Source of the DNA: Blastocystis sp. Blastoise
Lineage: Eukaryota > Protista > Bigyra: Opalinata
Assembly: GCA_039096225.1 (NCBI GenBank)
Contig: JBBPEB010000009.1
Location: forward strand, 868,001-932,000
Direction: 5' to 3'
Length of the DNA: 64,000 bases
The notes beneath the pieces were generated by a model. The model was not told the origin of the DNA and ran no database searches. It saw nothing but the letters and a program-made list of their open reading frames with translations. Shown piece after piece: positions 13,515-41,723 of this stretch. Each line of letters begins with the position of its first letter. Positions within the stretch are counted from its first letter, which is position 1. The position numbers and the translations under genes were made by a program.

Positions 13515-14408
13515 TTCTTCCGTTCTTCGAACTGCAGAAGGGGGTATGCAAACCCCGCATAGAGTCTGCGCGACGCGCGCAGCCATAAGCGGGGAAGACA
13601 TCCCCCTTTTTGTTCTCGACGGAAGAATTAATAACATTTCTGAAGTAAAATAACCATGGGAGTGTAGGGTAGTGTGTGTGTGTATTTATTTTTTCCCATG
13701 TTTATTTATTTTTAATTTATTTGTGTTCCGATTCCAACGTGAAACGTAAAGTGATCAAGGAGAAACTCATAGTAATCATAAAAGAAATAAAATACACAGT
13801 CCAACCCTCCCCTTTACAGGGAATATTCATGGGAAATGGCTCCATCGTTGGTAAAGTGAGTAAAATAATCACGGGAATACAGAAAGAAATACGAAAAGAA
13901 GCACAGAATGTGCTAAATAAACACACACCCCGACCCTCCCTTTATATAGAGAAAAGATGAAATGGATGGTTCTATCTAAAAAGAAATAATAGAAATAATC
14001 ACGGGAATATATAAAAATAAAAATGTATGTATAGTGATCAATAAATAATATAAAAAGTCATGATAATCATAAAAAAATTTATATAAAAAGAGTAAAGTGA
14101 TCAAGGTATGTATTTATAGTGGGTGAAAGAAAAGCTGGTGGTGGTGTGGTCTTGTAAAAAGATGTACCCACCACCACGATTATAACGAGAGACTTTTGGA
14201 AACAAGGGTGACCGTTATGGAAATAGGATGCGTCATCGTGAATTGTCCAATCAAATTGCTTAAAAATGTAAAAATGAGGGATTTTGGAACACAAAAACAC
14301 AATTATAATAGGGAAACTGGGGAAACTAATTGTGTTCCAGTTGTTTTATGTGGCGGAATGTATATCAATTTTCTAGAACATTCTAGAACATTCTCGAAAC
14401 TTCTAGAA
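13515..14408 (+). repeat. Left terminal inverted repeat of the PLV
   Basis: Reverse complement of 40829-41723 with a few substitutions and indels. Confidence 0.95.
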
Positions 14409-14418
14409 CATTCTAGAA
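14371..14418. promoter_or_regulatory. Heat-shock-element-like array (10 alternating nTTCn/nGAAn units) upstream of recombinase 1
   Basis: TTCTAGAACATTCTAGAACATTCTCGAAACTTCTAGAACATTCTAGAA, ~90 bp before ATG 14507. Confidence 0.7.
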
Positions 14419-14506
14419 CATGAGAATCTTAGATATTTTATTTTGATTTTCTTATGTATTATTCTTTTGAAAATAGAAGTTTTAAATATTCTACTTGAGA
14501 AAATCA

Positions 14507-15442
14507 ATGAAAAATACGAATTATGACAAGTATCTTTCTGTTATACAAAATTCAAATTATTCTGATATTTGGAAAAAACGTTTAACCAATTATTTCAATT
14601 TATATATTTTCCCATTACCATTTAAAAAGTTCTCAGAATTCTTAAAGAATCCTTATTCATTCATGGATTATATGGTAAATGAGCGTAAAATCAAAATTAG
14701 TCCAATGAAATCGTTATGTGAATTGATTTTATTTATTATACGTAATGTTTCTTCATTAAATAAAGAAGGTATTTTAAATAAATGGTGTGAATTTTATGTG
14801 ATTATCAATTCAATGTATGAAAAATATCTGGATAATAAGAAACGTACTTTGATTCAAGATCTTATTAAAGATGGTATTACGACTCCTTATTTACATGAAT
14901 ATCACGATAAATTAGAAAATTATAATCCATTACGATTAATATTAGATTTTTACTCCTATCTTCCTCCTGCTCGTGCTGATTATGCTCAATTATTCATTCT
15001 ATCACCAGAAGATACTATTGATCCAGCTATTCATAAGAATTATATTGTTTATGATAAAGAGAAACATACTGGTTCTATTCTATTAAATGATTATAAAACT
15101 GCTGGTAAATACTCTACAATTCAATTAGATGCACCAAAAGAATTGATTGAAGATCTAGAATTACTCTTAAAAAGAAATCCAAATCGTAAATTTATATTTG
15201 AATCTTCTGTACGAACTGGATTTACTACTAAAGCATTTGATTGGTTTGTGAATAAGCATTTAAAACAAATCCATCCAAAATTAACCATTAATGCATTAAG
15301 AAAATTATATGCTACAACTACAACCAATACATTCCAAGATATAGAAAATTCTGCTTCTGCTTTATGTCATAATGATTATACACATATTAATTCTTATGTA
15401 TCTTTAGAAAATAATAATTTATTTAAAAAATTAATTGAATAA
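14507..15442 (+). CDS. Tyrosine recombinase 1 (PLV/virophage type)
   Basis: PPARADY (R), NDYKT (K), NALRKLYAT, ALCH, INSY (Y) catalytic pattern; first ATG at 14507. Confidence 0.8.
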   Translation: MKNTNYDKYLSVIQNSNYSDIWKKRLTNYFNLYIFPLPFKKFSEFLKNPYSFMDYMVNERKIKISPMKSLCELILFIIRNVSSLNKEGILNKWCEFYVIINSMYEKYLDNKKRTLIQDLIKDGITTPYLHEYHDKLENYNPLRLILDFYSYLPPARADYAQLFILSPEDTIDPAIHKNYIVYDKEKHTGSILLNDYKTAGKYSTIQLDAPKELIEDLELLLKRNPNRKFIFESSVRTGFTTKAFDWFVNKHLKQIHPKLTINALRKLYATTTTNTFQDIENSASALCHNDYTHINSYVSLENNNLFKKLIE

Positions 15443-15515
15443 TTTTATGTTTTCATGCTTGTTTTGTTTTAAATTTGAATATAACTAAACAACTAGTAAT
15501 AAAAGGATATAAAAA

Positions 15516-15890
15516 TTAATTAAAAGGTAAGAAAGATAGATTATTATTATTATTTTGATATTGATTTTGTTGTTGATTACTTTTCATAGTTGGCATAAAC
15601 ATATTATTGGGTTGAATAAGATTTTTATCATCTTGATATTGATTCTCATTCTTCATATATTGTTTATCCAATAGCATTTCAAGACGTTGATGAATCACAG
15701 GATCATCTATATAAAGTAGCATATTTCTACAATAACTTAGTTGTAAATCACTAAGATTTTTGTTGTTATTGTTATTTAAAAATTGTTCTAATAGATTCGC
15801 TATTTCATTCTTTTTGGATTTAATTCCTTCTTCTTTTAGATTCTTCATCACACGACAAAAATAAGAATAACTAAGATATTTCTTGTTCAT
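15516..15890 (-). CDS. Hypothetical viral protein, 124 aa
   Basis: ATG-initiated ORF with an upstream HSE array (15986-16008) and downstream TGTTTAGTT (15483-15491). Confidence 0.6.
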   Translation of the reverse strand: MNKKYLSYSYFCRVMKNLKEEGIKSKKNEIANLLEQFLNNNNNKNLSDLQLSYCRNMLLYIDDPVIHQRLEMLLDKQYMKNENQYQDDKNLIQPNNMFMPTMKSNQQQNQYQNNNNNLSFLPFN

Positions 15891-15985: not shown

Positions 15986-16008
15986 GAATGTTCTAGAATG
16001 TTCTAGAA
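15986..16008. promoter_or_regulatory. HSE-like array (5 units)
   Basis: GAATGTTCTAGAATGTTCTAGAA, ~100 bp upstream of ORF 15890(-). Confidence 0.6.
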
Positions 16009-16012
16009 GGTT

Positions 16013-16633
16013 TTAACAAGGCATAAGATTTCCATTAGAAAGTAAATAAAGTAAAGAATAATAAAAGCAACCATTTGCATTACTTGTAGTTTTTTGGTGT
16101 TGAATAGGATTATACTGAATATTATGATTTTGAATAAATGATTTTGAAAAAGTAGGTTCATTTCCTAATGACGAATAGTGTTCTATATTTTTATTACCAT
16201 TATAAATAACAGCTTCAAAATGACCATTATAAGGATCACTAGGACTTTCATGAAAGATCATATTAAATTTAGTTTGATCTTGATCTATATTTTGTTCAAA
16301 ATCATCATAACTATTATAATAATTATAAGATTGAGAATTCGTTTTATTTAATTGTTTCATAACATTTTCAGCACGATCACAAGCAACAGAAGAGGTAGGT
16401 TTATTTAAATAAGCATAATTATATAATTGAGATATTAAAGAATTGGGTATATTACAATATTGAGATAGAGTTTGTTTGAAATTATCAGGGGATCTAGGAG
16501 TAACATGACGAGTTTTATCAGATATAATAGGATTATCGCAATTCATTGAATTTTGAATTAATTTCTCATCTTTACTCTTTACCAGATCCCCTCCCCTGAG
16601 TTTTTTGATAACATATACTTCTTTTCTTTCCAA
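16013..16633 (-). CDS. Adenain-like cysteine (maturation) protease, probably expressed by -1 frameshift from the upstream ORF
   Basis: NGHFEAV (His), IEHYSSLG, IQYNPIQHQ (Gln), SNANGCFYY (Cys) resemble adenain/PLV protease motifs. The ORF-track start is TTG; first ATG is 16546. Confidence 0.65.
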   Translation of the reverse strand: MERKEVYVIKKLRGGDLVKSKDEKLIQNSMNCDNPIISDKTRHVTPRSPDNFKQTLSQYCNIPNSLISQLYNYAYLNKPTSSVACDRAENVMKQLNKTNSQSYNYYNSYDDFEQNIDQDQTKFNMIFHESPSDPYNGHFEAVIYNGNKNIEHYSSLGNEPTFSKSFIQNHNIQYNPIQHQKTTSNANGCFYYSLLYLLSNGNLMPC

Positions 16634-18306
16634 AACATTTGTTCACCTCTATCTAATATTTCATTATTATCCATCTTCTGTTTTATAATTTGTAATTGTT
16701 TTAAATCATTTTTAGCTACTTTACGTTTCCTTTGAGCTACTTGTGCAGGTATTACAAAATCTGTATAAGCTGATACTATTGGAGGTAAATCACCACCTCT
16801 TTTCTTTTTAGCTTCTTTTCCTCTTCTCATTCGTTCTAAGAATTCTTCTTTACTTAATTTAACACGACCACCATATCCTCTACGTTTAGCTCTTCTTGCA
16901 GCTATTCGTTTATCCCTTTCATCTTCTTTCCATTTTCTATCGACTTTTTCTTTATCATTTTGAGGAAAACCATAAATCTTATAAGGATAACTTTGTTCAT
17001 CACGAGACATGGGTTTATAAGGTTGAGGAGGTTGTTGAGTTTGTGGATGTCTTGGTGTATCATTTTGAGGTATATCAAATGTATCAACATTCAATTCAGG
17101 TTCAATTTCTGGTTGTGGTTGAATGGGTGCTGCTGGAGGAGGTGGTTGACGAACAGGAAGATTCTTTCTAAGTTGTTGTTTCATACTGTGCAAATCTCTT
17201 AATGGTTGTACTTCTTGATCTAATAATTCTGATTGTCGTTCAACTGTATCGTAACCATCATTAATTGTTCCCATTACTATACCATTACCTATTTGCTTTT
17301 TCATTTCATTTAATGCTTGTTGACGTTTTAATTTTTCCATTTCAAATTCCATATCATTTAATTCACTTGATTGTTGTGCCAAATGTGTATCATAATAAGC
17401 TTTTCTACCTTTAGCAAAAGAATCCATACCTTTATCAACTACACCTAGAAGAGATGGTGCTATAGTTGTAAATGAGTCCCAGAACCCACCACCTCTTTTT
17501 ACTCTTAATATACCATCACCACTTTGAGCTGAATCTAAATCTATATATTTTGGTATAATAGAGGGTCTTAACATTCTTCTTAATTTTGGATTAATAATCA
17601 TTTTCTTATTTTTAATTGCATTCATAATTGCTGAAGCAACAGATATAGGAATTTTTCCACCACGTTTAATTTTATGTTCATAGAATCTTTTGAATTCATC
17701 ATCAAGATCATGATGACCGTCACCAACATATTGAGCTAAAATAGCTAATGCATCACGAGCTTTTCTATTAGCTTTTTTATCTACAATAGCATCTCTTATA
17801 TCTAATACATTTCGTTGATACATATCTTTTACTTTATTTTTAATTGCATCACCAATACCAGAACCTTGATTATTCTCAAATTTATTGATTTCTGATTTAT
17901 TTGGAATAATTCCTCTACCAGATTTACGTCTTGGTTTACATGGATTTAATACTTTATATTGACGATCTTCACCATCTATTTTATCTTCTTCTGGACCAGC
18001 TGCTTTCATTACACCTTTACCTGCTGCTCTAGCACGAATTAATGCACCATTTCCTTGTGGAACAGCATCTTTACCAAATGTTTTAGAACGATCTACATAA
18101 TCATCTTCTTTACCATCATGTATTTCTTTACTTTCTAAAGTAGACACAGGCATAGATGAATTTGGACCTATTTCATGAAATATTGGATTATATTGATCCA
18201 TTTTATGTAATGGTTGTGTATTATATCGCCTATATTCTTTTCCAGTTGAAATTAAATTCATACCAAAAGTACCAGGACTTGGCATTCCTAATATACAACT
18301 TTGCAT
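16579..18306 (-). CDS. Basic, low-complexity putative core/DNA-condensing polyprotein (575 aa)
   Basis: K/R-rich, with about a dozen GxG/GG motifs (GNGA, GRGI, GSGI, RGGK, GDGI, RGGG, GNGI, RGGD, GEGI); adjacent to the protease. Confidence 0.6.
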   Translation of the reverse strand: MQSCILGMPSPGTFGMNLISTGKEYRRYNTQPLHKMDQYNPIFHEIGPNSSMPVSTLESKEIHDGKEDDYVDRSKTFGKDAVPQGNGALIRARAAGKGVMKAAGPEEDKIDGEDRQYKVLNPCKPRRKSGRGIIPNKSEINKFENNQGSGIGDAIKNKVKDMYQRNVLDIRDAIVDKKANRKARDALAILAQYVGDGHHDLDDEFKRFYEHKIKRGGKIPISVASAIMNAIKNKKMIINPKLRRMLRPSIIPKYIDLDSAQSGDGILRVKRGGGFWDSFTTIAPSLLGVVDKGMDSFAKGRKAYYDTHLAQQSSELNDMEFEMEKLKRQQALNEMKKQIGNGIVMGTINDGYDTVERQSELLDQEVQPLRDLHSMKQQLRKNLPVRQPPPPAAPIQPQPEIEPELNVDTFDIPQNDTPRHPQTQQPPQPYKPMSRDEQSYPYKIYGFPQNDKEKVDRKWKEDERDKRIAARRAKRRGYGGRVKLSKEEFLERMRRGKEAKKKRGGDLPPIVSAYTDFVIPAQVAQRKRKVAKNDLKQLQIIKQKMDNNEILDRGEQMFWKEKKYMLSKNSGEGIW

Positions 18307-18799
18307 TTTTTTATTTCAATTATAAAATTATTTATAAACAAAACAAATATATTAATAAAAAATAAATTTAACATTAAAAATTTATAAATTAGTTAAATCA
18401 ATAATAGTATCATTACTATTAGTATTCTTCGTAGATTTATCGATGACTTTAATAGAACGAGCATATAAACCAATATAATACTTGTTATTATAACGATGAA
18501 TACCATGTATTGTAAATAATACTTTACATAACGTATTTGGTGGAATATACTTTTCACGTATTTCTTCGTAAGTTAACTTAGGATCTTTACCGATATTAAT
18601 CTTCTTATCTCTTTTATCAGTAACTAGGGTCACGCCGCAGGTCCGGGGCCTAACGGCACCGGACCGCGGCTGCATAAAATAATAACAGTTTGGCTTTTAT
18701 TTTCTTTTTTTCATTATTATATATTATCTATTATATATTAGTATTTATTATTTATTATTTATTATCTATTATATATTATATATTATATATTATTATCTA

Positions 18800-19290
18800 T
18801 TATATATTATATATTATATATTATATATTATATATTATATATTATATATTATATATTATATATTATATATTATATATTATATATTATATATTATATATTA
18901 TATATTATATATTATATATTATATATTATATATTATATATTATATATTATATATTATATATTATATATTATATATTATATATTATATATTATATATTATA
19001 TATTATATATTATATATTATATATTATATATTATATATTATATATTATATATTATATATTATATATTATATATTATATATTATATATTATATATTATATA
19101 TTATATATTATATATTATATATTATATATTATATATTATATATTATATATTATATATTATATATTATATATTATATATTATATATTATATATTATATATT
19201 ATATATTATATATTATATATTATATATTATATATTATATATTATATATTATATATTATATATTATATATTATATATTATATATTATATAT
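18800..19290. repeat. (ATTATAT)n 7-mer microsatellite within Helitron A
   Basis: ~490 bp of near-perfect 7-mer; the equivalent region at ~53310-53410 is short. Confidence 0.9.
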
Positions 19291-19305
19291 TACTTTAATA
19301 ACACT

Positions 19306-19372
19306 TCTTATACTCTATATGGGAGTTACAATCATTTATTGATTGTAATCAGGTTCAATTCCTGATATAAGT
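19306..19372 (+). ncRNA. tRNA-like (mascRNA-like) cloverleaf, subtype 1
   Basis: CTTATA / CTCT-ATATGG-GAG / TTACAATCA-TTTAT-TGATTGTAA / TCAGG-TTCAATT-CCTGA / TATAAG. Confidence 0.6.
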
Positions 19373-22228
19373 ATCTTTTAGATTTTTTTTTATAATATGT
19401 AAAAAACTAAAAGAATTTCTTAGATACTAAAAACGAAATTTGTATTATTATATATTATTTATTATTTTTAAAATATATTTTGTATTTATTAATAATGAAA
19501 CAACTGTTTTAAGCTTTTTTTGAGTTTTTAAAGTCAACAACTTTAGAAATGAGTCACAATGTGAAGTACTCTTGAGTATTTTTAAGTCATAAAATTCATT
19601 TAAATAAGCATAATATAATAATTTTAACTCATTTCAATACTTTTTAAAAGAATTTTGAAGTTTTATGTATAACAAAGTCAACATTCATTCTAACTTTGAC
19701 AACTAAAACATTTCTTAAAAAGTTAATATTTCTACAGTCGTCTCAAATAATGATCTTAAACACAAATTACTTGAAAACGTAACTTTTAAATAGACTTTAC
19801 CCATTCAAGATCCACTGTATCAAAATAATTTCCTTTAGTCTTTTGATATAATATAGAGTTTATCACACTATTTATTTAAAAAAAGTAAATGTTTTGAATC
19901 TCTTTCTTAAAGACCATTTTTGACACATTATGAAAAGTTAAGACACCTTAACTCATTTTTATAAGCTAATATTTACACACTATACTCAGTATAACGTTGG
20001 CTACACATTGGTCATCACTTTAAGACATTTTATAAACCTTTTGCATTTGCTCATTTACTTCGACCAAAATATTTTCGTCCCTCCTTTTGACATAATATAG
20101 AGTGTGTGGTCTAGTTATATGAAAGTGAGGGGGAATTTTGAATCTCGTCCTCTAAGTCAATCATTTTTACATTTTTCAAAATTTATACCCCTAAACTTGA
20201 TATTTTGACTCAACTTTTCTACAGTGTTCCAAAAACACGATTTTGCTCAAACTGAGTGAAAAATATTTTTTCAATAACTCTCACAACCCTTTACACATCC
20301 ACTCTCTAAAAATAGATTTTGCTATATTTTTGATATGTTGTAGAGTGTCTCTTAGTGTATACTGAACAATATCTCGTTTCTTAAAACTCTCATTTTATGA
20401 CTCACTTTGAACATATTATTACTAATTGAAAGGCTTAAACATATTTTTAAAAGCTAATATTTACATAGTAGACTATATATGACTCTATAAGCACATTAGT
20501 CAACACTTTAGACTTTTTAAAGACACTTTACCATTTGGTCATACACTTTGATCAAAATATTTTCGTCCCTTCTTTTAACATAATATAGGTCATACACTCT
20601 AGTTTAATGAATAAACACTCAAATATTGAATCTCGTCCTCTAAGTCACTCGTTTTTACATTTTTTTAAATTTAAGACCCTTAGAGTTAATTTTTTGGCTC
20701 AATTTTTTTATAGTGCACGAAATTCACGATTTAACATAAACTGAAGTAAAAATAAATTTTAAATAATAGTCACAACCCTTCACACATCCACTCTCTAAAA
20801 ATTATTTTAACTGTACTTTTGATATGTTGTAGAGCTACTACAGCTGTACACTAATTAATATCTCTAAATTTTTTATTCATAGTCTAAGACTATGTTTTAC
20901 ACATTCTTTTGAATTTGACAACCTTAAACTATTTATTTAAAGCTATTATTCATAAAATAAACTTAATATATGATTCTAAACACATATAGAAACCCTTTTA
21001 CTTTTTAAGACACATTTTGTCATTTGGTCATACACTTTGACCTTCATAATTTTGACTCTCCTTTTAATATAGTATAGAGTTATAAGTCTAGTTTACTAAA
21101 CGAAAGTCATTATATTGAATCTCTCACTCTAAGACCACTTAATTCACATTTTTCAAAATGGTCACTTTTAAACTTGTTATTTTAAAACTTTGTTTTAACT
21201 ATAGTAGTTTGATGACCTATTGATTACAATACTACAATATTAGTCCATTATAAGAAGATCGAAGAAAATATCGATCACTCAAAAATCGTCCTCAGGAGCT
21301 CAAAATTGGTACACCTAGGTTTTTGAACCTCCTGAATCAGAATATGATGTCAAATTGAGAATCTAAATTTGACTGTTAAGGCCTCACGTGTTCAATATGA
21401 AAAAGTCTTTAAAAATAGATAAATATAAAGAATAAACACGGATAACGTATATTGTGGGATTGATAAAAAATCAAGTTTACCCCATGTTTATTTTTCAATT
21501 GTCTGGTCAACAATTTTTATCGGGGTCATCCCAAAGAGCCAATCAAAAACGACTCAAAAATCATGTTTTCTGTTCTTTTATTAATAACTTTTTAATTATA
21601 AACAATATCGCTTAACCAAATATACGGTGCACAACTACATGTTATATCCTATTGAACTGTGTTTCAACCAAAAGTTAACTCCCCGTAAGTTTAGAGGAGT
21701 TGCGGCGACAAACTATAGTATATAGTAGCCAATCAAATGCATTTTCCAAAAACTGACCAATGGGAATTTTTTTGCCTATTCTCATATATATAGTAATGAT
21801 ATCAATAGTAACATTCTTCGATGCATTAATAGGTACTTTAATTGTAATCTTATACTTACCATTATCCATACGTACAAAATTAACAATATCACCATCAGGA
21901 CATAATTCACATAATTTACGATAAAGTTCTTTATAAGCAGTTAAGAATACTTGATTATCATCTTCAATTGTTAATAAAGTCCATTTATCACGTGTAACAA
22001 TATAACCAAATAAACATGGTGTAGCATCAGTAGAAATACATACACGATGATTATTATTTAAAAGAACAGCATTTTCTTTGGTGTCATCCCATTGTAAATT
22101 AAAGTTAGAAGTATCAAGAATAGTAGGTTTTTTAAATTCAGTTGTAGACATTTTTAGTTAAGTATTTAGTAAAAATATAAGTATTTTAATACTAATATTT
22201 TACGATATTCTTTTCAAATGAATCAATT

Positions 22229-22276
22229 TTCGAGAAGGTTCTAGAAGGTTCTAGAAGGTTCTAGAAGGTTCTAGAA
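22229..22276. promoter_or_regulatory. HSE-like array (10 units) upstream of the SSB gene
   Basis: TTCGAGAAGG(TTCTAGAAGG)3TTCTAGAA, ~80 bp upstream of ATG 22151(-). Confidence 0.7.
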
Positions 22277-22475: not shown

Positions 22476-23003
22476 TTAATGATCAAATATTTCAGACATA
22501 GAAGGAATAGAATATTCGGATAATAATGAAACAATTTCTTTAGAATCATCATGAATCTGTTTCAAATCTTGTTTCTGACTTTCAATCTTTGTTTTTAAAT
22601 GATCAACAGTACAATAAATACCATTTAATATATTATCAGCTGTTTCAATAGTTTGAAATAAAGATTCGAATTGACTGGATATATTTGTTAACTCCTCATT
22701 TGTAAATAATAATGCTTGCTTATTAGGATTTGTATTTACTTGATCTTGAAATTGTATTGGTTGATTGTTAACGGAATGATATCTATCTGGATTTTTAGAT
22801 ACGTAAACATCATTGATTGGATGAATTTCTTGAGGTGGATCTTCAAACATGATTTCGTCACGCGAATTAAAACAGAAATCATTATCATTGGGTAAAGCCA
22901 TAGGATTTGCAGAAACACTATTTTCAAATGGATTCAACAAGGGGGATATCATGGCTTGACCGAAAGGGGATAAACTGGCGGAAAGATTATCAGGAATTTC
23001 CAT
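22476..23003 (-). CDS. Hypothetical viral protein with C-terminal coiled coil
   Basis: 175-aa ATG ORF; TGTTTTGTT downstream at 22443-22451(-). Confidence 0.6.
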   Translation of the reverse strand: MEIPDNLSASLSPFGQAMISPLLNPFENSVSANPMALPNDNDFCFNSRDEIMFEDPPQEIHPINDVYVSKNPDRYHSVNNQPIQFQDQVNTNPNKQALLFTNEELTNISSQFESLFQTIETADNILNGIYCTVDHLKTKIESQKQDLKQIHDDSKEIVSLLSEYSIPSMSEIFDH

Positions 23004-23272: not shown

Positions 23273-23290
23273 GAACCTTCTAGAACATTC
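23273..23290. promoter_or_regulatory. HSE-like element (4 units) beside CCAAT boxes in a divergent promoter
   Basis: GAACCTTCTAGAACATTC, with CCAATCA at ~23190 and ~23263. Confidence 0.55.
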
Positions 23291-23401: not shown

Positions 23402-24025
23402 ATGCAATTTAATCTTTCTGCTGATTCCCGTAAATGTCTTCAAACTGTTCGTATGGAACTTCTAAAGAATTCTAAGAAGGCTGTTGAAGTTCATAAGAAT
23501 GTTCTTCGTGATATTGATTTACATCAGTCTCAATTGAATAGAGAAAAGAATCTATTGGGTATTGCAAAATCTAAAGAACGTCTTGCTTCTTTCGAAGTCG
23601 AAAATTATAGATCAGCTTTAAAACGTATAAACGCGGTTATTAAAGGTCTTGAAGATTATGAAGAATTCGCTGCTGATATTTATACTCAACAACTTAATGA
23701 AGAACAAGATATTCAAGATATTATCAATACTGAAGATCTTTTAGAAAGTGATAGAACTACTATTTTATGTTCTGAAGATTCTAAAGAACATTCGAATTCT
23801 AAAGATGATGATTTTGATATTATGAAATTCCATATGGAAGATGGATTTCTTTATGATGAAAAAGGTAAAGTTTATTCTTATGAAGTTGTTCATGCTAAGA
23901 GTATTAACAAGATTAAAAGAGATCCTTCAAAACAAATGTATTTCTGGGATGGTATTTTATATGATAAAAATGGATGGCCTCATTCATGTACATATATTAA
24001 TAGTCAAGAACCAATTGAAATTTAA
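23402..24025 (+). CDS. Hypothetical viral protein (N-terminal coiled coil; two DGxLYDxxG repeats)
   Basis: ATG 23402; DGFLYDEKG and DGILYDKNG. Confidence 0.65.
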   Translation: MQFNLSADSRKCLQTVRMELLKNSKKAVEVHKNVLRDIDLHQSQLNREKNLLGIAKSKERLASFEVENYRSALKRINAVIKGLEDYEEFAADIYTQQLNEEQDIQDIINTEDLLESDRTTILCSEDSKEHSNSKDDDFDIMKFHMEDGFLYDEKGKVYSYEVVHAKSINKIKRDPSKQMYFWDGILYDKNGWPHSCTYINSQEPIEI

Positions 24026-24135: not shown

Positions 24136-24265
24136 TTCTAGAAGGTTCTAGAAGGTTCTAGAATGTTCTCGAAGGTTCTAGAACATTTAAAAATATAAAG
24201 TAATATTTACTATTATAGAATGTTCTAGAAGGTTCTAGAAGGTTCTAGAAGGTTCTAGAAGCTTC
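24136..24265. promoter_or_regulatory. Two HSE-like arrays (10 + 10 units) upstream of the primase-helicase
   Basis: 24136-24183 and 24218-24265: alternating TTC/GAA with variable 2-nt spacers. Confidence 0.7.
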
Positions 24266-29261: not shown

Positions 29262-29684
29262 TTATAAATGAAGAGATTGAACAATAGAATCAACACTTAT
29301 ATTTAATTTCATTAATTGAACAGCTAATTCTTGTATTGATTCATTTTGATTCGAATCAATTTCTTCTAATTCATTCAAGACTTCAGATATATGTTTGACT
29401 TCTTCTTCTATAATCGTTTGTTGTATTTTCATTGTCTTATAATAGACTTTCTTTGTTTGTGGATTACAACAATTACAATGAATATCTATATTTTTAACAA
29501 TTAATTGAAAGAATTCAGTTGATTTCTCAAATAAACATTTTATAGCTTTTATAATAAATTCTAATAAAGTATTTTTCTTTTCTATTTCTTCTTCGGATAA
29601 TGTGGTTGTTGTTGAACTATCTGAACTTGTTGAACTTGTACTTGATAAAGAATGTAAGGATTCAGATACAGATTTAGGCTCCAT
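29262..29684 (-). CDS. Hypothetical viral protein (S/T-rich N-terminus, CNCC, coiled coil)
   Basis: 140-aa ATG ORF with the downstream 3' motif. Confidence 0.6.
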   Translation of the reverse strand: MEPKSVSESLHSLSSTSSTSSDSSTTTTLSEEEIEKKNTLLEFIIKAIKCLFEKSTEFFQLIVKNIDIHCNCCNPQTKKVYYKTMKIQQTIIEEEVKHISEVLNELEEIDSNQNESIQELAVQLMKLNISVDSIVQSLHL

Positions 29685-29753
29685 TTTTTAATAATTTTTA
29701 AATGAATAATATAACAAAACATTTTTTAATTTAAATGAAATGAATTAAAATAT

Positions 29754-32189
29754 TTATATATAAGAGATAGTTAATAAAACAACACAAGGATAATCACATG
29801 TTATAAAGAACATATTATCATGAGGTAATAACTTTAATAATTTACGATTACAATAATAGACATTCTTATTGATCTTATTTGATATACCTTCATATTTAAT
29901 ACCATTCGAATAGTAATAAGGTAGATTTGTAGTATCAATAACATGAATATTATTCTCATATTCATTAGTAAAGCATCTTAATGAAATAGGATATAAGTAA
30001 TCAGTGGATTGACCATACACTGATATAATTTGTATATTCGTTAAGTATTGATATCCATAGACATTGGTTTTCTTCAATTCATAAATTAAATTCTTACTCG
30101 TACTAAAATCACAATATACTTCATCATAAGCTTTGAAACGTATATCACTACCATTCGGTTCACATATATTACAAATTATATTTCCTTTGAATAATTCATC
30201 AAATCTTAAATCTATATGATGATCAATTGTGATTGGAGAATTTATATTACTATAAGTAACATATTTATCAGATAAAGGAAAACTAAATGTAGGATAATAT
30301 GATCCATTTATATATCCAGTACATAATTTAGATGCATTTGTTTGGATCGTATCAGTATCATTCTGAATAATAATATCTTTTAAGATCTTATTCTGGATAT
30401 TCAATGTAGGATATTCAGCATAGAATTGTGTGTCTGCTGTTAAACAATTCAAACATAATTTCTTAATGGTTTCACTAGGTTGAATCGTATCGACTGTATC
30501 TGAGAATTCTAAGAATCCTCTTAAAATACAATTATCATTGAAATTCACATATTGTTTATTCTTATCAGTATATCGTATTGTAATATCTTGTATTGTATTC
30601 AAATAAGGAGACACATTAATATTCATAATATCATGAAATTCATTATTGCCTTTATAATTATTCACATTGAATGAATATAAAGAATTCTGACTATTATCTA
30701 CTATATTCGATTGAGCTATTAACATTCCTTTTGGACGACTACTATCAATATTATGAATACCATAATTAATAATTTCATCATGACCTAATTTATTATATCC
30801 TAGAATTTCACCTAATTCTTGAGCTTGAGAAAAATCTATATGATAACTATCAGTATAACACTTATAATTACCATCTAAATCTAATGTATTCAAATCAGCT
30901 ATTTTGTCTGGTATTAATTGTTTACCATAAGATACATACCAAGCAAAACATCCTTGTTCATCATAAACTAAATCAGGACGTATATTATGTAGAGCACCAC
31001 GATACTTAAATAAGGAGTGCTCTATATCTGTAGCTGTAAATGTGAATGACGTAGAATCAGTACCTTTACAAGATAAATATATTATATATCCATCCTTATT
31101 GTCCATAGTCTGAGTATCTTTGGATATACTTAAATAATCCGTATAAATTGTATTATTGATTGAACTTTCTAATAATTCATAGAATTTGTTTTCTGTGTAA
31201 TTTCCAGGAGGAACAGTGAATGTAGTTTCATGAACACCATCATAACCACTCAATTGTCGAACAATCATTGTATTATATCCATCTTCCACAAAGACTGTTC
31301 TTTTAATTCTATTTAATGTAATTTCCTCTTGAAGTGAAGTATATGTCAATGTTTCTGAATCTTCAAATAAGCCAGTGAATAATTGTTTTTCTAAACTGAG
31401 TATATTATTACTTGACCATTGGAAATAAAATTTATGTTCATCAGCTAATACACATTTCATAATTCCATTAGAACCTTGTGTTGGAACAATATAACTTGAA
31501 TGATCACTCACACCATCAGTAAAGAATTCATTCAATTCATAGATTCCTGTTGATGTAACAGGAACATTATAAGAAGTTAATTGAGGTCGATATATGGTTA
31601 TAGTATCATCATCATATCTCATCATTAAACGATTAAATTTATCACCCCATTTAGCTGATACACAACATACAGCTATCCACCAAAACTCTATATCCGTATA
31701 AGTACCTTTTGGAAAGTAAAAACCACGTCTTTTCTTATAAATTGTAATTTCACAATACCAATCATCTCTATCAATGGTTATTGTTGGGGCTTCATTAATT
31801 TTGACAGTGGGATCAATATCAGGAGAATCTTTTATTACTGGTCTATCACATACATCAAAATGACATAGTTCTAATAATTGTGGAATAGAATAATTTTTCT
31901 GATCTAAAGTAATTGTTTGAATTTGTTCATTACCATTGACACGAGTATTTATATATTTGAATATTTGTGTTTTTGTGAAAGTATCAAATAGAGGCACACT
32001 TTCACTACCAATTAAATTAAGATCAATATAAGAAATGATATTTTTAGTGATATCAATAGAATTCGATAAATGTATATTGAATTGATTATCAATACAACGA
32101 ACATCAATAGGGACTACATGTGTTTTAATACGAGTATCCTTCTCTTCTAATGAAGTCTGTTCTTCATAATTATCATCATCAAGTTCCAT
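29754..32189 (-). CDS. Large penton/minor-capsid-like structural protein (811 aa)
   Basis: Repeated penton insertion motif (LDQKNYS, FPKGTYT, VPPGNYT) and IQDITIRYTDKNKQYVNFN, similar to the 35221 penton. Confidence 0.6.
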   Translation of the reverse strand: MELDDDNYEEQTSLEEKDTRIKTHVVPIDVRCIDNQFNIHLSNSIDITKNIISYIDLNLIGSESVPLFDTFTKTQIFKYINTRVNGNEQIQTITLDQKNYSIPQLLELCHFDVCDRPVIKDSPDIDPTVKINEAPTITIDRDDWYCEITIYKKRRGFYFPKGTYTDIEFWWIAVCCVSAKWGDKFNRLMMRYDDDTITIYRPQLTSYNVPVTSTGIYELNEFFTDGVSDHSSYIVPTQGSNGIMKCVLADEHKFYFQWSSNNILSLEKQLFTGLFEDSETLTYTSLQEEITLNRIKRTVFVEDGYNTMIVRQLSGYDGVHETTFTVPPGNYTENKFYELLESSINNTIYTDYLSISKDTQTMDNKDGYIIYLSCKGTDSTSFTFTATDIEHSLFKYRGALHNIRPDLVYDEQGCFAWYVSYGKQLIPDKIADLNTLDLDGNYKCYTDSYHIDFSQAQELGEILGYNKLGHDEIINYGIHNIDSSRPKGMLIAQSNIVDNSQNSLYSFNVNNYKGNNEFHDIMNINVSPYLNTIQDITIRYTDKNKQYVNFNDNCILRGFLEFSDTVDTIQPSETIKKLCLNCLTADTQFYAEYPTLNIQNKILKDIIIQNDTDTIQTNASKLCTGYINGSYYPTFSFPLSDKYVTYSNINSPITIDHHIDLRFDELFKGNIICNICEPNGSDIRFKAYDEVYCDFSTSKNLIYELKKTNVYGYQYLTNIQIISVYGQSTDYLYPISLRCFTNEYENNIHVIDTTNLPYYYSNGIKYEGISNKINKNVYYCNRKLLKLLPHDNMFFITCDYPCVVLLTISYI

Positions 32190-33736: not shown

Positions 33737-33906
33737 ATTTAATATTTCTTACTTACTATTCTTAACGTTAACTTGTTTAATTAATTCTATTCTATTCTAT
33801 ATTCCAATCATTTGTTTTGTTATGAATTTCAAATAATTTTATAATTATAAAATATCATTATTATTTTATTTTTTATTTAAAAAATACATAAACAATAATT
33901 ATTAAA

Positions 33907-35130
33907 ATGGAAGGATTCCCAAGACAATTCTTACCTTCAAAGGCAAATCAAACTATTAAACCTGTACAAATTCCTATTCTAGTTTCTACTAGTCAAGATT
34001 TATTAAATCAACCTTATCCATTTGAATTCTTATATAATTCAGTTGATAGTCCTTTTATTGATTTCAGTAATTCATTCTTAGAACTGAATTTCAATATTAC
34101 AACAAATGCAGCTACAACTAGTTCTGTTGTACAACATTCTAATATCTATAGTATTATTGATAAAATTACTACAGATCTTACGTTTGTATCTCCTACGGGT
34201 CAAGATATTCTTATTAATTATTCTGAATCTTCTATTGAATCCAGTAAAGCAAGAAAATTTGTTACTATTAAAGAATTAAGTAAAGATGAAATTGATAAAT
34301 CTATGTATAGTATGACAGAATGCTTATATAATACAACCTTAAGTAGTATTGCTGGAATGCAAAGTTCTACTAAAGCTCAAGTTATTATTCCTTTATCTCT
34401 TATTACTGGTCTTGGTACATTTGATTGTGCTATTAAAGTAAAATCTTTGAAGATGCAATTCGTTACAAATTATTTAAAGAATCTATTTACTGGAACCACT
34501 AAAATCACTGCATTAACATTTGATCGTGTTTATATTCATCTTCAACAAATTTATGATATTAATTTTGGTAATGATCCACGTGCTTTGATTAAATGTATTC
34601 CTAATAATTGTCAAATATCTGCATTTACTACACCTGTTTATTCAGAAACATTCTCAACAGCAGGTAAACCAACTCCACAACAATTCTTATCCAATAGAAG
34701 TGTTGTTTTCGTACCTGATTACTGTATGCTATATTTTACAACTCAAGAGAAGAGTATGATTCCTATTAAGACTGAATTATTGAAGATGTGTCAATTCCAA
34801 ATTGGTGGTCAAAATATCTTACCAAAGACGGATTTCCCTACTACATATAAAACAACGAATCCATCACAAATTATTCCTAATGCTATGCTTTATAATACTT
34901 GGAGATGTAATAGTCATCCTCAATCTCCTTTGAATGGTGAAAAGTGGTATGAACAACCTATTTATATATTCCCTATTTCAAGTGTTGTTGATGTCAATAC
35001 TCGTAGTGGTTGTGAAGTTAATATCTCCTTATTAACTGAATATAATGGTGCAAATATTACTAGTGGTACTTATACTTTATATGCTCATTTTATATTTGTT
35101 AAATTTGTTAGAGATGGTGCAACCAATTAA
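33907..35130 (+). CDS. Major capsid protein, paralogue B (putative double jelly-roll)
   Basis: FIDFSNSFLELNFNIT, NIYSIID, VIIPLS..GLG, VPDYCMLYF, PIYIF; size and context typical of a PLV MCP. Confidence 0.7.
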   Translation: MEGFPRQFLPSKANQTIKPVQIPILVSTSQDLLNQPYPFEFLYNSVDSPFIDFSNSFLELNFNITTNAATTSSVVQHSNIYSIIDKITTDLTFVSPTGQDILINYSESSIESSKARKFVTIKELSKDEIDKSMYSMTECLYNTTLSSIAGMQSSTKAQVIIPLSLITGLGTFDCAIKVKSLKMQFVTNYLKNLFTGTTKITALTFDRVYIHLQQIYDINFGNDPRALIKCIPNNCQISAFTTPVYSETFSTAGKPTPQQFLSNRSVVFVPDYCMLYFTTQEKSMIPIKTELLKMCQFQIGGQNILPKTDFPTTYKTTNPSQIIPNAMLYNTWRCNSHPQSPLNGEKWYEQPIYIFPISSVVDVNTRSGCEVNISLLTEYNGANITSGTYTLYAHFIFVKFVRDGATN

Positions 35131-37050: not shown

Positions 37051-38088
37051 ATGAGTTCAATTACAAAAAGATATTTAAAACAAAATTGTGATCCACGATT
37101 ATTTGGAGGATCACCACCAAAATCAAATAGACGTGATCTTTATCATAAACGTTATGTAAGATATGGAGGAACTGGTTTTGAAGAAATTGTTAGACAACAA
37201 GCTAAAGATGCTGATTGGGCTGATTTTAAAAATGGTGTCTATACTGCATTACCTATTTTAGGTACATTAGGAGCATTTGCTGGATATAATTATTATCAGA
37301 AACGTAAAGAACAAAAACGTCAAGAAAAAGCAAAAGAAGAAAAGAAAAGACAATTTGAAGAACATATTGAAGATGCTAATCGAGATGATGAATTATATAA
37401 TGATGATGCTACTTATCAACCAAAGAGAATAACAAGAAAAATGATGGCTGATGATGATAAAGATTATAATAATGCAAATCTTGAAGATGAAAATTATGAT
37501 GATATATTTGGTCAAGGTATACATAGAAGGCATCAGAAACATCGTAAAGAACATGGGAGTCACCGAGAAAAAGAAAAGAAAACAAGTAAATTCGTAACTC
37601 CTCAAATAAAAATTATTGCTAAGAAGTCTATTCGTTCTAGTAATGTAAAGTCTAATAAGAAGAAATTACAAGATATTAAAGAACGATTACCTAAAAATGA
37701 TGAGCATGTGTCTGTACGTGATATTGTTAATGTCGTTATCGATAAAGAATATCCTATGGATCCAAAACAAAAGCATTCTATTATTGCGAATACTGCTATT
37801 AAAACTATTAAAACGATTGTTCCTATTGTAGTGAATGCATTAAAATACTATTATCCTTCTCTTGGTATCCCTATTGATTTCGCTTATAATATGATTACTA
37901 CTGATGATGATAAGAAACGTAAAGAAACTGCTGATAACTACTTTAAAAATCCTGGTGGAAGTGGTGTTACAAAAGAGAATGCTGAACGTTGTGGTGGTGC
38001 TCTTGTCAACTCTACATCCTTTGATACTACTACTAATTTAATTATTAATCTTGTTCAATTCTTCTTAAAAAAATTCCATTTAAATTAA
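37051..38088 (+). CDS. Hypothetical viral structural/core protein with one hydrophobic segment
   Basis: 345 aa; ALPILGTLGAFAGY followed by charged tracts; several GG/GxG motifs. Confidence 0.6.
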   Translation: MSSITKRYLKQNCDPRLFGGSPPKSNRRDLYHKRYVRYGGTGFEEIVRQQAKDADWADFKNGVYTALPILGTLGAFAGYNYYQKRKEQKRQEKAKEEKKRQFEEHIEDANRDDELYNDDATYQPKRITRKMMADDDKDYNNANLEDENYDDIFGQGIHRRHQKHRKEHGSHREKEKKTSKFVTPQIKIIAKKSIRSSNVKSNKKKLQDIKERLPKNDEHVSVRDIVNVVIDKEYPMDPKQKHSIIANTAIKTIKTIVPIVVNALKYYYPSLGIPIDFAYNMITTDDDKKRKETADNYFKNPGGSGVTKENAERCGGALVNSTSFDTTTNLIINLVQFFLKKFHLN

Positions 38089-38164
38089 TTATTTTAACTT
38101 TTATTATTTCATAATTAATTATTTGTTTTGTTATATAATTATTTTTAAATTAATACAATAAATA

Positions 38165-38962
38165 ATGCAAAGTAATTTAGGAGATAGTGTAACTCTATAT
38201 GATATTTTATCAAGAAATCAGAAAAAACAATCTTGGGATCCATGGTTACCAAATTCATATATTTGTCAAGATGAACAACCTGTACAACCATTAGCACATG
38301 ATCCTAATGCACAAGGATCTATGTATAGTTCAATGGCAGTTCAAGCATTAAGAAATCATGGTCAATCACCTGAAGATATGTTTATAGCTACTATGAATTC
38401 AGCTAAAGCTAATGGTGATACCAATAGATATACATCCATGTTATCTCAATGGCAAACGAATTATGGTATTCCTACTACAAGTAAGATATGGTATGATGCT
38501 AGTAATCCTAATAACTATCAATATGAAAAACTTATTCATACTGTAAGAAATCCTAATGAAGACTATACAGTGAAACCACAACCAGAATCCATGAATTCTA
38601 ATTTCACTGAAGAACAACCCAAACCAGAACCTGAAAAGAAACCTGAACACGAAAAGAAACCAGCTAAAGAACCTGAAACTAAACCTGAAACTGAAAAGAA
38701 ACCATCTAAAGAAGATGATAATACTCCAAAGAAATTTGAATTCGATATGAATTTACAACAAGATACCGACGAAAAAACATATTATAACGCCACTTATGGA
38801 AAGTATAAATTCAAATGGTATACTGATGGACCTATTGAATGCACCAATAGTGATGTTTTTGGAAATAATAATATATTCTACAAAAATAAAACATTATTTG
38901 TTGAAGCTAATGATAAATCAATGAATATTGACGATTATTTAAAAAATACTCATAATAATTAA
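38165..38962 (+). CDS. Hypothetical viral protein with KPE repeats
   Basis: 265-aa ATG ORF with a PEPEKKPEHEKKPAKEPETKPE linker. Confidence 0.65.
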   Translation: MQSNLGDSVTLYDILSRNQKKQSWDPWLPNSYICQDEQPVQPLAHDPNAQGSMYSSMAVQALRNHGQSPEDMFIATMNSAKANGDTNRYTSMLSQWQTNYGIPTTSKIWYDASNPNNYQYEKLIHTVRNPNEDYTVKPQPESMNSNFTEEQPKPEPEKKPEHEKKPAKEPETKPETEKKPSKEDDNTPKKFEFDMNLQQDTDEKTYYNATYGKYKFKWYTDGPIECTNSDVFGNNNIFYKNKTLFVEANDKSMNIDDYLKNTHNN

Positions 38963-39052
38963 TGATACTATTAATATACTAACTATATAATATAAATAAT
39001 TTCTTTTTTTTTTGTTTTGTTTTAAAATTCATAATTATTTTATTAATTTAAA

Positions 39053-40537
39053 ATGATACAAAGTGCTCGTTTAAATGTTTCAAATAAAGGATTAGTAGGC
39101 GTAAATCATCGTGCTACTGGTCATGAATATCGAAATTATATTGTTCCAGGATCTATTCCTGATGGAGAAGAACGTTATCCAATTAATTATTCTATTGCTC
39201 CAAATTCATTATATGCTGTTAAGAAAATTGAAAGTAATATGGTCAATAGAGCAACATCCAATCCATTTTTCTCCTATTTATCAGAAACCAGACAAGATAT
39301 TATACAAAGTTCCTTAGAAGAATCAGAAGAAAGTGAACCAATAGATGAAGGATCTGGGTTATTACCTGATGGTAGAATTCCGAAGAACTTTACAAGAAAA
39401 CTCATTTATGCTCATGATTATGTCTTACCTTATATGAAACAAAATCATATGTCTGATTATGCTAAATATTCAAGATTATTAAATCCTCGTACAATTGATA
39501 GTGCAATTGATTTTACTAAAAGAGATCGTGATGGTTATTTATATTCTAGAGGTGGTAATTTATTTTCTAATATTTATCACACTGTAAGTGATGTATACAA
39601 TGTGTCTGATAAATTAACTGGAGGTATTAATAATATCACTCATGGAATAAGTAATGCTGTTGATTATGGTGCAAATAAATTCAAAGATCTCAAGAATTGG
39701 TGGAGAGATATTAATGTTGATCCAAAAGAAGGATTCAATGATATTAAAGGAAAACTTGTAAGTGATAGAAATAATTTATATGATAATTGGAAATTAACTG
39801 ATGATAATGAAGCTAAGAAAAAGAATAAATTATTAGCTGATAACTATTTTAGATTTGCTCATATGTCAGGTAATGATACGAAACAACAAAGACTTAACAA
39901 AAGTAAATCTTTAGAAGATCAAGCAAAAACATTTCATGAAAATTATATTCCCTATGCAGAAAACCCAACATTCGTTAATAAAGTTGTTAATACTGCAACA
40001 AATGTATCAAAACCTGTGTATAATGGTGTTAAGAAAGTTGCAAACTCTGTTGTTAGTGGTGTAAAGAATTTATTTAATACCTTTTCTGGATATTACTATG
40101 GTAAAAACCCAGAGGACGAAATACCACAAACAGAAAATTCAATAGAAACAAATAATAATGTTATACCAACTTCTTCATCTACTCCTGATACTCTAACACA
40201 AGAAAATATTCATAATATTACTATTGAAGATTCAAATCCTCCAAATTTAATTCCTCTTATGAATGATCCTACTGTTCCTTTACCTGATACTGTTCCAATG
40301 TCTCAAGCAATAACGAATAAATTCACTCCAAATATTACACCTGTAGCCCCTATTCCTAATCCAGTAGAAAATGTCACTCTTGAAAATAAAAGAAATAAAA
40401 AAGAAGATGATGAATTTCAATCATTTGATGAAGATGATGGTGAGGTATTTTATGATCTCGAAGAAGGTAATGGATTACGTAGAAAAAGACGTATTTCAAA
40501 AAATAAAAAATTAAGAAATAAACGTAGAAAACATTAG
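39053..40537 (+). CDS. Hypothetical viral core-like protein (acidic patch, then basic tail)
   Basis: 494 aa; GSGL, RGGN and GNGL motifs; C-terminal RRKRRISKNKKLRNKRRKH. Confidence 0.65.
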   Translation: MIQSARLNVSNKGLVGVNHRATGHEYRNYIVPGSIPDGEERYPINYSIAPNSLYAVKKIESNMVNRATSNPFFSYLSETRQDIIQSSLEESEESEPIDEGSGLLPDGRIPKNFTRKLIYAHDYVLPYMKQNHMSDYAKYSRLLNPRTIDSAIDFTKRDRDGYLYSRGGNLFSNIYHTVSDVYNVSDKLTGGINNITHGISNAVDYGANKFKDLKNWWRDINVDPKEGFNDIKGKLVSDRNNLYDNWKLTDDNEAKKKNKLLADNYFRFAHMSGNDTKQQRLNKSKSLEDQAKTFHENYIPYAENPTFVNKVVNTATNVSKPVYNGVKKVANSVVSGVKNLFNTFSGYYYGKNPEDEIPQTENSIETNNNVIPTSSSTPDTLTQENIHNITIEDSNPPNLIPLMNDPTVPLPDTVPMSQAITNKFTPNITPVAPIPNPVENVTLENKRNKKEDDEFQSFDEDDGEVFYDLEEGNGLRRKRRISKNKKLRNKRRKH

Positions 40538-40611
40538 TTAATTTTAATTTATTTTATTTATTATTATTTTAAAAAACTAAACAATTTGTTTTGTTATTTA
40601 TAAAAATTAAT

Positions 40612-40782
40612 TTAAAAATCAATAAAATTCTTGATATAATCTTCATATTCATCATCTTCACTTACAGTATGAAAACTGTCCATATCAGAATCACTATCAC
40701 TTAATTCATCAACTTCAAAATTTCCATAAGGTTTCCAAGTACCTTCTTTATAATCTGGAGCAAATTGCTTTGGAGAATCCAT
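40612..40782 (-). CDS. Small acidic viral protein (56 aa) downstream of the right-TIR HSE array
   Basis: ATG 40782; HSE array at 40829-40866 upstream; TGTTTAGTT downstream (40575-40583). Confidence 0.55.
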   Translation of the reverse strand: MDSPKQFAPDYKEGTWKPYGNFEVDELSDSDSDMDSFHTVSEDDEYEDYIKNFIDF

Positions 40783-40828
40783 AATAAATAGTATAAAAAT
40801 AGAAAAAAACGCATAATACAATTTGTTA

Positions 40829-41723
40829 TTCTAGAAGTTTCGAGAATGTTCTAGAATGTTCTAGAAAATTGATATACATCCCGCCACATAAAACCACTGG
40901 AACACAATTAGTTTCCCCAGTTTCCCCAATATAATTGTGTTTTTGTGTTCCAAAATCCCTCATTTTTACATTTTTAAGCAATTTGATTGGACAATTCACG
41001 ATGACGCATCCTATTTCCATAACGGTCACCCTTGTTTCCAAAAGTCTCTCGTTATAATCGTGGTGGTGGGTACATCTTTTTACAAGACCACACCACCACC
41101 AGCTTTTCTTTCACCCACTATAAATACATACCTTGATCACTTTACTCTTTTTATATATTTTTTTTTATGATTATCATGACTTTTTATATTATTTATTGAT
41201 CACTATACATACATTTTTATTTTTATATATTCCCGTGATTATTTTTATTATTTCTTTTTAGATAGAACCATCCATTTCATCTTTTCTCTATATAAAGGGA
41301 GGGTCGGGGTGTGTGTTTATTTAGCACATTCTGTGCTTCTTTTCGTATTTCTTTCTGTATTCCCGTGATTATTTTACTCACTTTACCAACGATGGAGCCA
41401 TTTCCCATGAATATTCCCTGTAAAGGGGAGGGTGTGAGCGTGTATTTTATTTCTTTTATGATTACTATGAGTTTCTCCTTGATCACTTTACGTTTCACGT
41501 TGGAATCGGAACACAAATAAATTAAAAATAAATAAACATGGGAAAAAATAAATACACACACACACCACCCTACACTCCCATGGTTATTTTACTTCAGAAA
41601 TGTTATTAATTCTTCCGTCGAGAACAAAAAGGGGGGATGACTTCCCCGCTTATGGCTGCGCGCGTCGCGCAGACTCTATGCGGGGTTTGCATACCCCCTT
41701 CTGCAGTTCGAAGAACGGAAGAA
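40829..41723 (-). repeat. Right terminal inverted repeat of the PLV (inner end carries an 8-unit HSE array)
   Basis: Reverse complement of 13515-14408. Confidence 0.95.

Follow-up and report, generated by a model that had tools for sequence, protein, structure and literature searches.

A Polinton-like provirus in Blastocystis sp. Blastoise

The window analysed here is a stretch of 64,000 nucleotides from the Blastocystis sp. Blastoise genome (contig JBBPEB010000009.1, positions 868,001 to 932,000; all coordinates below are those of the window). It contains an integrated Polinton-like provirus of 28,211 bp (13514-41724), or ~25.0 kb without a nested insertion, which carries 19 genes. Seven perfect arrays of inverted nGAAn units, the type of sequence that is bound by eukaryotic heat shock factor (HSF), lie within the element and upstream of genes other than those for the virion. 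A first-pass annotation, made from the letters alone, had proposed that these arrays mark only the early genes of a stress-inducible provirus, in which the HSF of the host would switch on excision and replication.

The provirus is bounded by terminal inverted repeats (TIRs) which align over 896 columns with 98.4% identity between left and right when the window is compared with itself. The flanks consist of a host repeat of ~4 kb, of which an uninterrupted copy is present at 58983-63013; identity to this copy is 95.9% over the 1 kb that adjoins the element on the left and 100% over 197 nt on the right. The left junction reads GATAACA-TATTA-repeat and the right junction repeat-ATTAA-AAGC, and the empty site reads GATAACA-ATTAA-AAGC. 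Two interpretations fit these junctions: a duplication of 4 bp (ATTA) plus an additional base, or an exchange of unmatched 5-bp overlap sequences, the latter being typical of Tn916-type tyrosine recombinases. The host repeat that was hit is non-coding and occupies 9699-13513 and 41725-41921, its second copy being intact. The outer ~120 nt of each TIR form a GC-rich hairpin (fold z -7.9 on the left and -7.4 on the right). These end hairpins lie at 13511-13633 and 41604-41730, with the terminal sequence recurring in inverted orientation ~110 nt further in, and may represent an additional site for recombination, an origin or some telomere-like structure. Comparison of the left TIR with Rfam returned two sub-threshold chance matches only.

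The element is a Polinton-like virus (PLV) and not a Maverick, as assigned from the double-jelly-roll capsid, packaging ATPase, terminal repeats, primase-helicase and tyrosine recombinases that it combines (Table 1). A scan of 20 open reading frames (ORFs) against Pfam and PHROGs found no protein-primed DNA polymerase B (PolB), and among the scanned ORFs neither database matched a retroviral-type (rve) integrase, tyrosine recombinases being present instead. The model of the capsid protein has a predicted local distance difference test (pLDDT) score of 73, and its best structural match was a 'MELD virus sp.' protein (E 6e-17, template modelling score 0.64). The packaging ATPase has a variant Walker A motif at residue 39 and a weak FtsK match in Pfam (E 0.05). 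The primase-helicase has a Walker A motif at residue 634 and no match in PDB or phage records. Recombinase 1 itself reached only E 0.08 against PF00589, which 5 of its 19 aligned relatives match. Integrated and with its TIRs, the element measures 28.2 kb, inside the range of 14-40 kb given for PLVs (PMC10120064). The terminal repeats, the empty site and the capsid fold together uphold the claim of the first-pass annotation that the DNA is a provirus.

Table 1. Coordinates of the genes, repeats and arrays of the provirus and of related features (window positions unless a contig is named)
Feature	Position	Strand	Array upstream	Remarks
Left terminal inverted repeat	13514..14408	+		Self-comparison; extends into first array
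nGAAn array, 10 units	14371..14418			88 bp upstream of recombinase 1; 8 units within left repeat
Tyrosine recombinase 1, 311 aa	14507..15442	+	Yes	R156, K197, R265, H288 and Y297 present
ORF124	15516..15890	-	Yes	No Pfam or PHROG match
nGAAn array, 5 units	15986..16008			95 bp upstream of ORF124; 4 bp beyond stop codon of protease-like gene
CE-clan maturation protease (likely), 177 aa	16013..16546	-	No	Foldseek top rows SENP/I7L-type
575-aa protein, possibly core protein	16579..18306	-	No	Rich in Gly-Gly / Gly-x-Gly
Split gene, earlier labelled SSB (single-stranded DNA-binding protein)	18382..22151	-	Yes	Broken in two by 3.2-kb insertion
Helitron-like host repeat nested in provirus	18624..21799	-		TC start, hairpin and CTAG end, between A and T
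nGAAn array, 10 units	22229..22276			77 bp upstream of split SSB-like gene
ORF175	22476..23003	-	Yes	Acidic N-terminus; C-terminal part with weak coiled-coil-type matches
nGAAn array, 4 units	23273..23290			Between divergent ORF175 (269 bp) and ORF207 (111 bp); gap with three CCAAT boxes
ORF207	23402..24025	+	Yes	Pfam and PHROG scans without family
nGAAn array, 10 units	24136..24183			Distal of the pair upstream of primase-helicase
nGAAn array, 10 units	24218..24265			86 bp upstream of primase-helicase
Primase-helicase, 945 aa	24352..27189	+	Yes (double)	phrog_1156 DNA primase, E 2e-9, residues 574-749
Tyrosine recombinase 2, 598 aa	27398..29194	-	No	hhalign to recombinase 1 profile, 96% probability, E 5e-9
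ORF140 and ORF811	29262..32189	-	No	Pfam and PHROG scans without family
Capsid protein paralogue, 490 aa	32264..33736	+	No	28% identity to 407-aa capsid protein, E 3e-38
Double-jelly-roll major capsid protein, 407 aa	33907..35130	+	No	Foldseek Sputnik capsid, E 1.8e-11
Penton / minor capsid protein (likely), 223 aa	35221..35892	+	No	Atlas feature lead only
Packaging ATPase, 345 aa	35961..36998	+	No	phrog_2666, E 1e-10
ORF345, ORF265 and ORF494, possibly core or virion	37051..40537	+	No	Role from position
ORF56	40612..40782	-	Yes	30% Asp/Glu
nGAAn array, 8 units	40829..40866			46 bp upstream of ORF56; mirror of first array
Right terminal inverted repeat	40829..41724	-		Self-comparison and fold
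Empty paralogous target site (left and right flanks joined)	62795..62835	+		Flank identity, junction reading
Bacterial-type (TTCTAGAAnn)n intergenic arrays	L023:1501-1538, L002:4001-4057, L017:3945-3987, L020:363-410, L022:919-956			L023 is Prevotellaceae

Number, makeup and placement of the arrays

The positions and sizes reported for the seven arrays in the first-pass annotation proved exact (10, 5, 10, 4, 10, 10 and 8 units from left to right, hence 4-10 units each), and no further run of at least three alternating GAA/TTC units occurs in the 64-kb window, the ~36 kb of flanks having none. In 100 local Markov simulations the chance expectation per window was 1.35 arrays of three units, 0.01 of four and 0.01 of five. 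The palindrome TTCTAGAA is found in 23 copies in the element as opposed to one in the flanks, which total 35,789 bp. Because the arrays at 14371 and 40829 form the innermost part of either TIR, they count as one sequence seen twice, leaving five independent array loci.

Each array is mostly a tandem run of a single decamer and, to judge from this composition, slippage probably built the arrays. Since TTCTAGAA is palindromic, CA equals TG, GG equals CC, AC equals GT and TC equals GA, so that the six spacer types listed in the first-pass annotation reduce to four classes of GAA-nn-TTC spacer; the TTC-nn-GAA spacer is TA in 22 of 26 cases. With the arrays extended in phase and the mirror copy omitted, mismatches affect 1 of 138 core positions and 7 of 80 spacer positions (p=0.004). 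The corresponding figures in 22 control arrays from public contigs are 46/936 and 50/580, giving a core-versus-spacer odds ratio of 0.08 for the element and 0.55 for the controls, a comparison in which both sets were seeded on perfect cores and some controls may be true heat shock elements (HSEs). The retained array sequence looks to be under constraint. The invariance of GAA and TTC had been held to argue against slippage; the mismatches do avoid the cores, but the invariance is partly definitional and slippage is still the probable builder. When four palindromes in strict phase are required, the element has two occurrences (starts 22239 and 24223), as compared with 1 stretch among 596 Gb of prokaryote genomes and 21 stretches among 241 million metagenome records. 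The scans for array patterns returned 1, 21 and 1 loci, and the first 22 of these encode no relative of the element's proteins.

All five independent loci lie 5' of a gene, and the arrays stand 46-269 bp upstream of the ATGs of 7 of the 19 genes. The upstream placement proposed earlier stands. For the other 12 genes no array is present within 400 bp. None of the five identified virion genes has an array upstream, in agreement with the first-pass annotation, as compared with three of the four replication or recombination genes (p=0.048). A lack of arrays in the convergent gaps (3/3) was dropped as evidence.

The gaps themselves also differ. The four internal gaps that bear arrays are 122-398 bp long and have 16-27% GC after removal of the arrays, against 1-12% GC in 10 of the 11 array-free gaps that contain a gene start. 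A CCAAT box is present at 3/5 array loci versus 2/14 other internal gaps. The word TGCGTCAT occurs three times in the window, once in each TIR and once at 778, upstream of a host gene, with a CCAATCA-type box near each; in the left TIR it lies at 14229, followed by a CCAAT box at 14247. The GC contrast, the CCAAT counts and the company of TGCGTCAT with CCAATCA-type boxes, small as the counts are, suggest two promoter classes, one of host type for the genes with arrays and another, rich in AT, for those of the virion. Nearer their ends the TIRs carry other repeated words, GTGATCA three times and AATAATCACGGGAAT twice.

Host heat shock factor and competing explanations

At least three inverted nGAAn units in phase define an HSE, and all seven arrays have them. 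HSF homologues, on whose presence the first-pass annotation made its proposal depend, occur in the host genus: a published table of domain counts, which is evidence at genus level, gives 2-3 HSF-type DNA-binding domains in each of 8/8 Blastocystis strains, the counts for IPR000232 being 2, 3 and 2 for the tortoise isolates, with all five human isolates having 2 apiece (Lind et al. 2025, PMC12129017 Table S5). HSF PITG_04701 of the oomycete P. infestans is reported to bind TTCTAGAA in an electrophoretic mobility shift assay, three units being bound better than one or two (PMC11267843). We consider it quite probable that the arrays are HSF sites, whether they respond to stress or are constitutive or stage-linked, and we lean towards the reading that host HSF drives the early gene set and that stress induces the provirus. 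Of the earlier HSF-switch interpretation, the provirus, the HSE-type sequence and the placement at non-virion genes hold, and the division into early and late genes is weak at the p value given above.

Under stress induction, the signal could be heat, oxygen on exit from the gut or any protein-folding stress. Stress-activated trimers of host HSF would load cooperatively onto the arrays, of which one with 10 units could seat about three, and the bound HSF would recruit host RNA polymerase II and so turn on the replication genes and recombinase 1. Excision at the 5-bp junctions would follow through recombinase 1, and replication through the primase-helicase together with a host polymerase, the element encoding none. 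The virion genes, with their short and very AT-rich upstream gaps, would come on later by another route, possibly through one of the small array-linked proteins, and recombinase 2, which has no array, might be made late for integration, though this is speculative. A more doubtful extension, which we put forward only tentatively, is that a family of such proviruses in Blastocystis has a eukaryotic, HSF-driven counterpart of SOS prophage induction, with excision, replication and virions obtained without a giant-virus helper. In lambdoid prophages a host stress regulator times the exit by way of repressor cleavage. The likeness would lie in a stress-timed exit of the provirus, and the difference in a host activator that binds the viral promoters directly.

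Several observations weigh against stress induction through HSF. The class comparison includes the SSB-like gene, and it falls to 2/3 versus 0/5 (p about 0.11) when that gene is left out; an array does stand upstream of the gene, as the first-pass annotation had it, but the name is unconfirmed and the gene is split. Arrays do accompany seven non-virion genes, yet recombinase 2, likewise a non-virion gene, has none, so the assertion that they mark the early genes holds in part. That the convergent gaps lack arrays does not reach significance (p=0.45). The control arrays, too, show a spacer bias (p=0.005). Intergenic arrays of the same decamer also turn up in the genome of an uncultured member of the Prevotellaceae and on four rumen-type contigs that look bacterial. 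Bacteria are not known to have an HSF, and an array by itself is therefore no proof of HSF use; given that arrays can arise without HSF, the argument for HSF sites rests on five loci with consistent placement. Most P. infestans HSFs are described as lacking a coiled coil, as having ungapped motifs and as changing with developmental stage (PMC11267843), so that in stramenopiles heat need not be the signal. The trigger described for related elements is a giant virus, and mavirus induction is independent of host stress responses according to the same preprint (10.1101/2025.10.09.676808).

The main competing explanation keeps HSF and gives up stress: the sites would act as constitutive or stage-linked early promoters, with HSF always bound or else activated when the cell is infected or encysts, and the integrated copy would not be induced under stress. 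Oomycete HSFs that shift with life-cycle stage (PMC11267843), the occupation of herpesvirus lytic promoters by HSF2 in latent cells via chromatin state (PMC12047821) and the 2-3 putative HSFs of Blastocystis (PMC12129017) are all consistent with it. An always-on promoter for a recombinase or a primase would, however, be ill-suited to an element with many stably integrated copies, unless it were silenced. Long perfect arrays also favour cooperative binding of HSF trimers, established in animals and plants as the stress-activated state, with the preference for trimers demonstrated in one oomycete HSF (PMC11267843), and on these grounds we regard the explanation as unlikely. It is improbable that the arrays are operators of a protein encoded by the virus, be it a repressor or activator among the small ORFs, a recombinase with arm sites or a protein that binds iterons. 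Tandem palindromic units would suit a dimeric binder, four of the array-linked ORFs have no assigned family and each TIR has one array, but each array stands before a gene, at ~860 bp from the junctions in the case of the two in the repeats and 2.5-10 kb into the element for the others. Arm sites or a single origin are placed differently from arrays spread before several genes. The GTGATCA and AATAATCACGGGAAT words nearer the ends fit the role of arm sites or iterons better, and a viral protein would need to match the HSF optimum by coincidence.

Neutral origin is harder to maintain. That each array mostly repeats one decamer, that similar arrays exist in bacteria and that long degenerate runs occur elsewhere (L003, L007, L013) would fit a palindromic minisatellite expanded by slippage, either neutral or with a structural role as a cruciform or in nucleosome exclusion; five independent loci in 28 kb, all upstream of genes and none in the flanks, together with lengths that stop at 10 units and mismatches that fall outside the cores, make this very improbable. 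We give least credence to a virophage-like arrangement, in which the arrays would be promoter motifs recognised by the transcription apparatus of a helper giant virus. No polymerase is encoded by the element, and giant viruses are reported to reactivate mavirus, endogenous mavirus-like elements (EMALEs) and Tetraselmis PLVs, the EMALEs via matching late promoters (10.1101/2025.10.09.676808), but the arrays here accompany CCAAT boxes that resemble those in host DNA, and a survey of giant viruses in the gut describes no flux of genes linking egoviruses with Blastocystis (10.1101/2024.03.23.586382). A helper virus of Blastocystis was not encountered in the available literature on gut giant viruses and Blastocystis particles; the older electron microscopy reports of particles in Blastocystis have, in the available text, no tie to the present element (PMC12835684). 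A helper could still act on the AT-rich promoters of the virion genes, or through an HSF response that it provokes.

Control of mobile DNA by HSF is already known from ONSEN, Helitrons and herpesviruses, and the new part of the reading preferred here, induction by stress through host HSF, is that it concerns a PLV. ONSEN/Copia78 of Arabidopsis is likewise mobile DNA integrated in the genome, with terminal repeats that contain HSF motifs and with activation by heat (PMC13602373), but it is a retroelement with one long terminal repeat promoter, whereas here a double-stranded DNA (dsDNA) virus has arrays at five loci and induction is predicted. Helitrons of Caenorhabditis are DNA mobile elements with many HSEs bound by HSF-1 upon heat shock; their described effect is on neighbouring host genes (PMC6927752), while the present arrays face genes for recombination and replication of the element itself. 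The Helitron-like insertion in the window contains no array. At ORF50 of Kaposi's sarcoma-associated herpesvirus and BZLF1 of Epstein-Barr virus, HSF2 places a host protein of the HSF family in the latent-to-lytic switch of a DNA virus, the differences being a single master regulator promoter, an episomal genome and chromatin poising there, and several genes of an integrated protist virus here (PMC12047821).

Endogenous virophages and PLVs share with the element its size, TIRs, jelly-roll capsid, packaging ATPase and the combination of primase-helicase with tyrosine recombinase (10.1101/2025.10.09.676808; PMC10120064), and the two recombinases, two capsid paralogues and HSE arrays set it apart from those described (mavirus, EMALEs, Tetraselmis TsV-S2x). 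The Blastocystis hominis MELD virus likewise comes from Blastocystis data and is a midsize dsDNA virus whose virion proteins are divergent, but it has PolB and an adintovirus-like integrase, neither of which is found in the present element (Starrett et al. 2021, PMC8502044). The words 'promoter' and 'heat' are absent from the main text on that virus (PMC8502044), Blastocystis, heat, stress and promoters go unmentioned in the main text of PMC10120064, and viruses in the sequenced genomes are no topic of the available text of the Blastocystis genome paper (PMC12129017). No prior report of HSE arrays in a PLV was found in the literature covered, which takes in few subscription journals. The PLV family of Blastocystis with tyrosine recombinases is apparently undescribed, and its HSF-driven early gene set is probable. 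Protist genomes hold thousands of PLVs, for which the triggers described in the literature covered are giant-virus infections. If the reading is true, a PLV would have a helper-independent, prophage-like life cycle for which both factor and stimulus are named, and Blastocystis, the commonest eukaryote of the gut, would gain an inducible DNA virus together with its first candidate regulated promoters.

Relatives, remaining genes and host surroundings

The search with the capsid protein yielded 87 proteins from 2,273 candidates; the name Blastocystis sp. Blastoise goes with the best (93% identity) and with three others (48-51%), and nearly all of the remaining relatives are European Nucleotide Archive or Logan records at 55-63% identity. 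These ~80 metagenome relatives (P0002-P0087 and clusters), whose contigs reach 27 kb, suggest by protein similarity that the virus family is widespread, and they may share the putative HSF wiring. Pattern matches for the DNA of the capsid relatives (63 viral, 239 metagenome and 95 prokaryote contigs) gave 0 confirmed cases, and no DNA of a recombinase relative was found in viral contigs. One sequencing run (X1) contains 0.33 of the words sampled. The recombinase 1 cluster comprises 10 sequences that are 99-100% identical to that of the window, with 17 Blastocystis sp. Blastoise accessions listed, and on account of this identity the provirus family looks multi-copy and recently mobile. The 36 integrase-like catalytic domains counted in one tortoise isolate (PMC12129017 Table S5) are the number expected from ~18 copies with two recombinases each. 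The tortoise clade has 21-23% GC (PMC12129017), and the low GC and long introns of the window are in line with it.

As to the remaining genes, the model of the candidate CE-clan protease is of low confidence (pLDDT 51) and its best Foldseek match (E 0.04) falls short of the firm threshold. The penton candidate has Atlas feature matches at 0.97, including DUF5901 and the Sputnik V18/19 clusters, also below the firm threshold. ORF345, ORF265 and ORF494 have no firm family match in Pfam or PHROGs. The 575-aa protein (16579-18306) and the 494-aa protein (39053-40537), at opposite ends of the element, are alike in their N-terminal 64 residues (33%, E 2e-4). Capsid paralogues in tandem (32264-35130) occur alongside two tyrosine recombinases in the one element. 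The cluster of ORF175 has 16 members, of which the 15 listed are 96.6-100% identical. A TTGTTT/TTTGTT word lies within 80 nt downstream of 16/19 stop codons; as evidence of host polyadenylation it was dropped, the DNA being AT-rich and the motif being reported as unenriched in tortoise isolates.

The split gene was presumed to encode an SSB on the basis of a motif only, and no search confirmed this: Atlas, two homologue searches, Pfam and PDB gave the identification no support. As this SSB-like gene is interrupted, the present copy of the provirus would probably depend on sister copies. The insertion that breaks the gene has ends of Helitron type. Its family has 489-bp internal repeats, a long TATTATA tract and a GC-rich hairpin followed by CTAG, with related starts elsewhere in the window near 44250, 47149 and 54185 and a related end near 53507. 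Mobile DNA is thus nested in three layers, the Helitron-like insertion within the provirus and the provirus within the host repeat. The stretch at 41921-58900 is made up of direct and inverted duplications of 2-5 kb of an intron-rich host gene region, interleaved with Helitron-like copies, and this duplicated region carries GAAGGAA-type repeats. Intron-rich host genes also occupy 1-8120, and by eye these resemble a membrane transporter, an adaptor-complex mu subunit and a His-rich cation-diffusion transporter.

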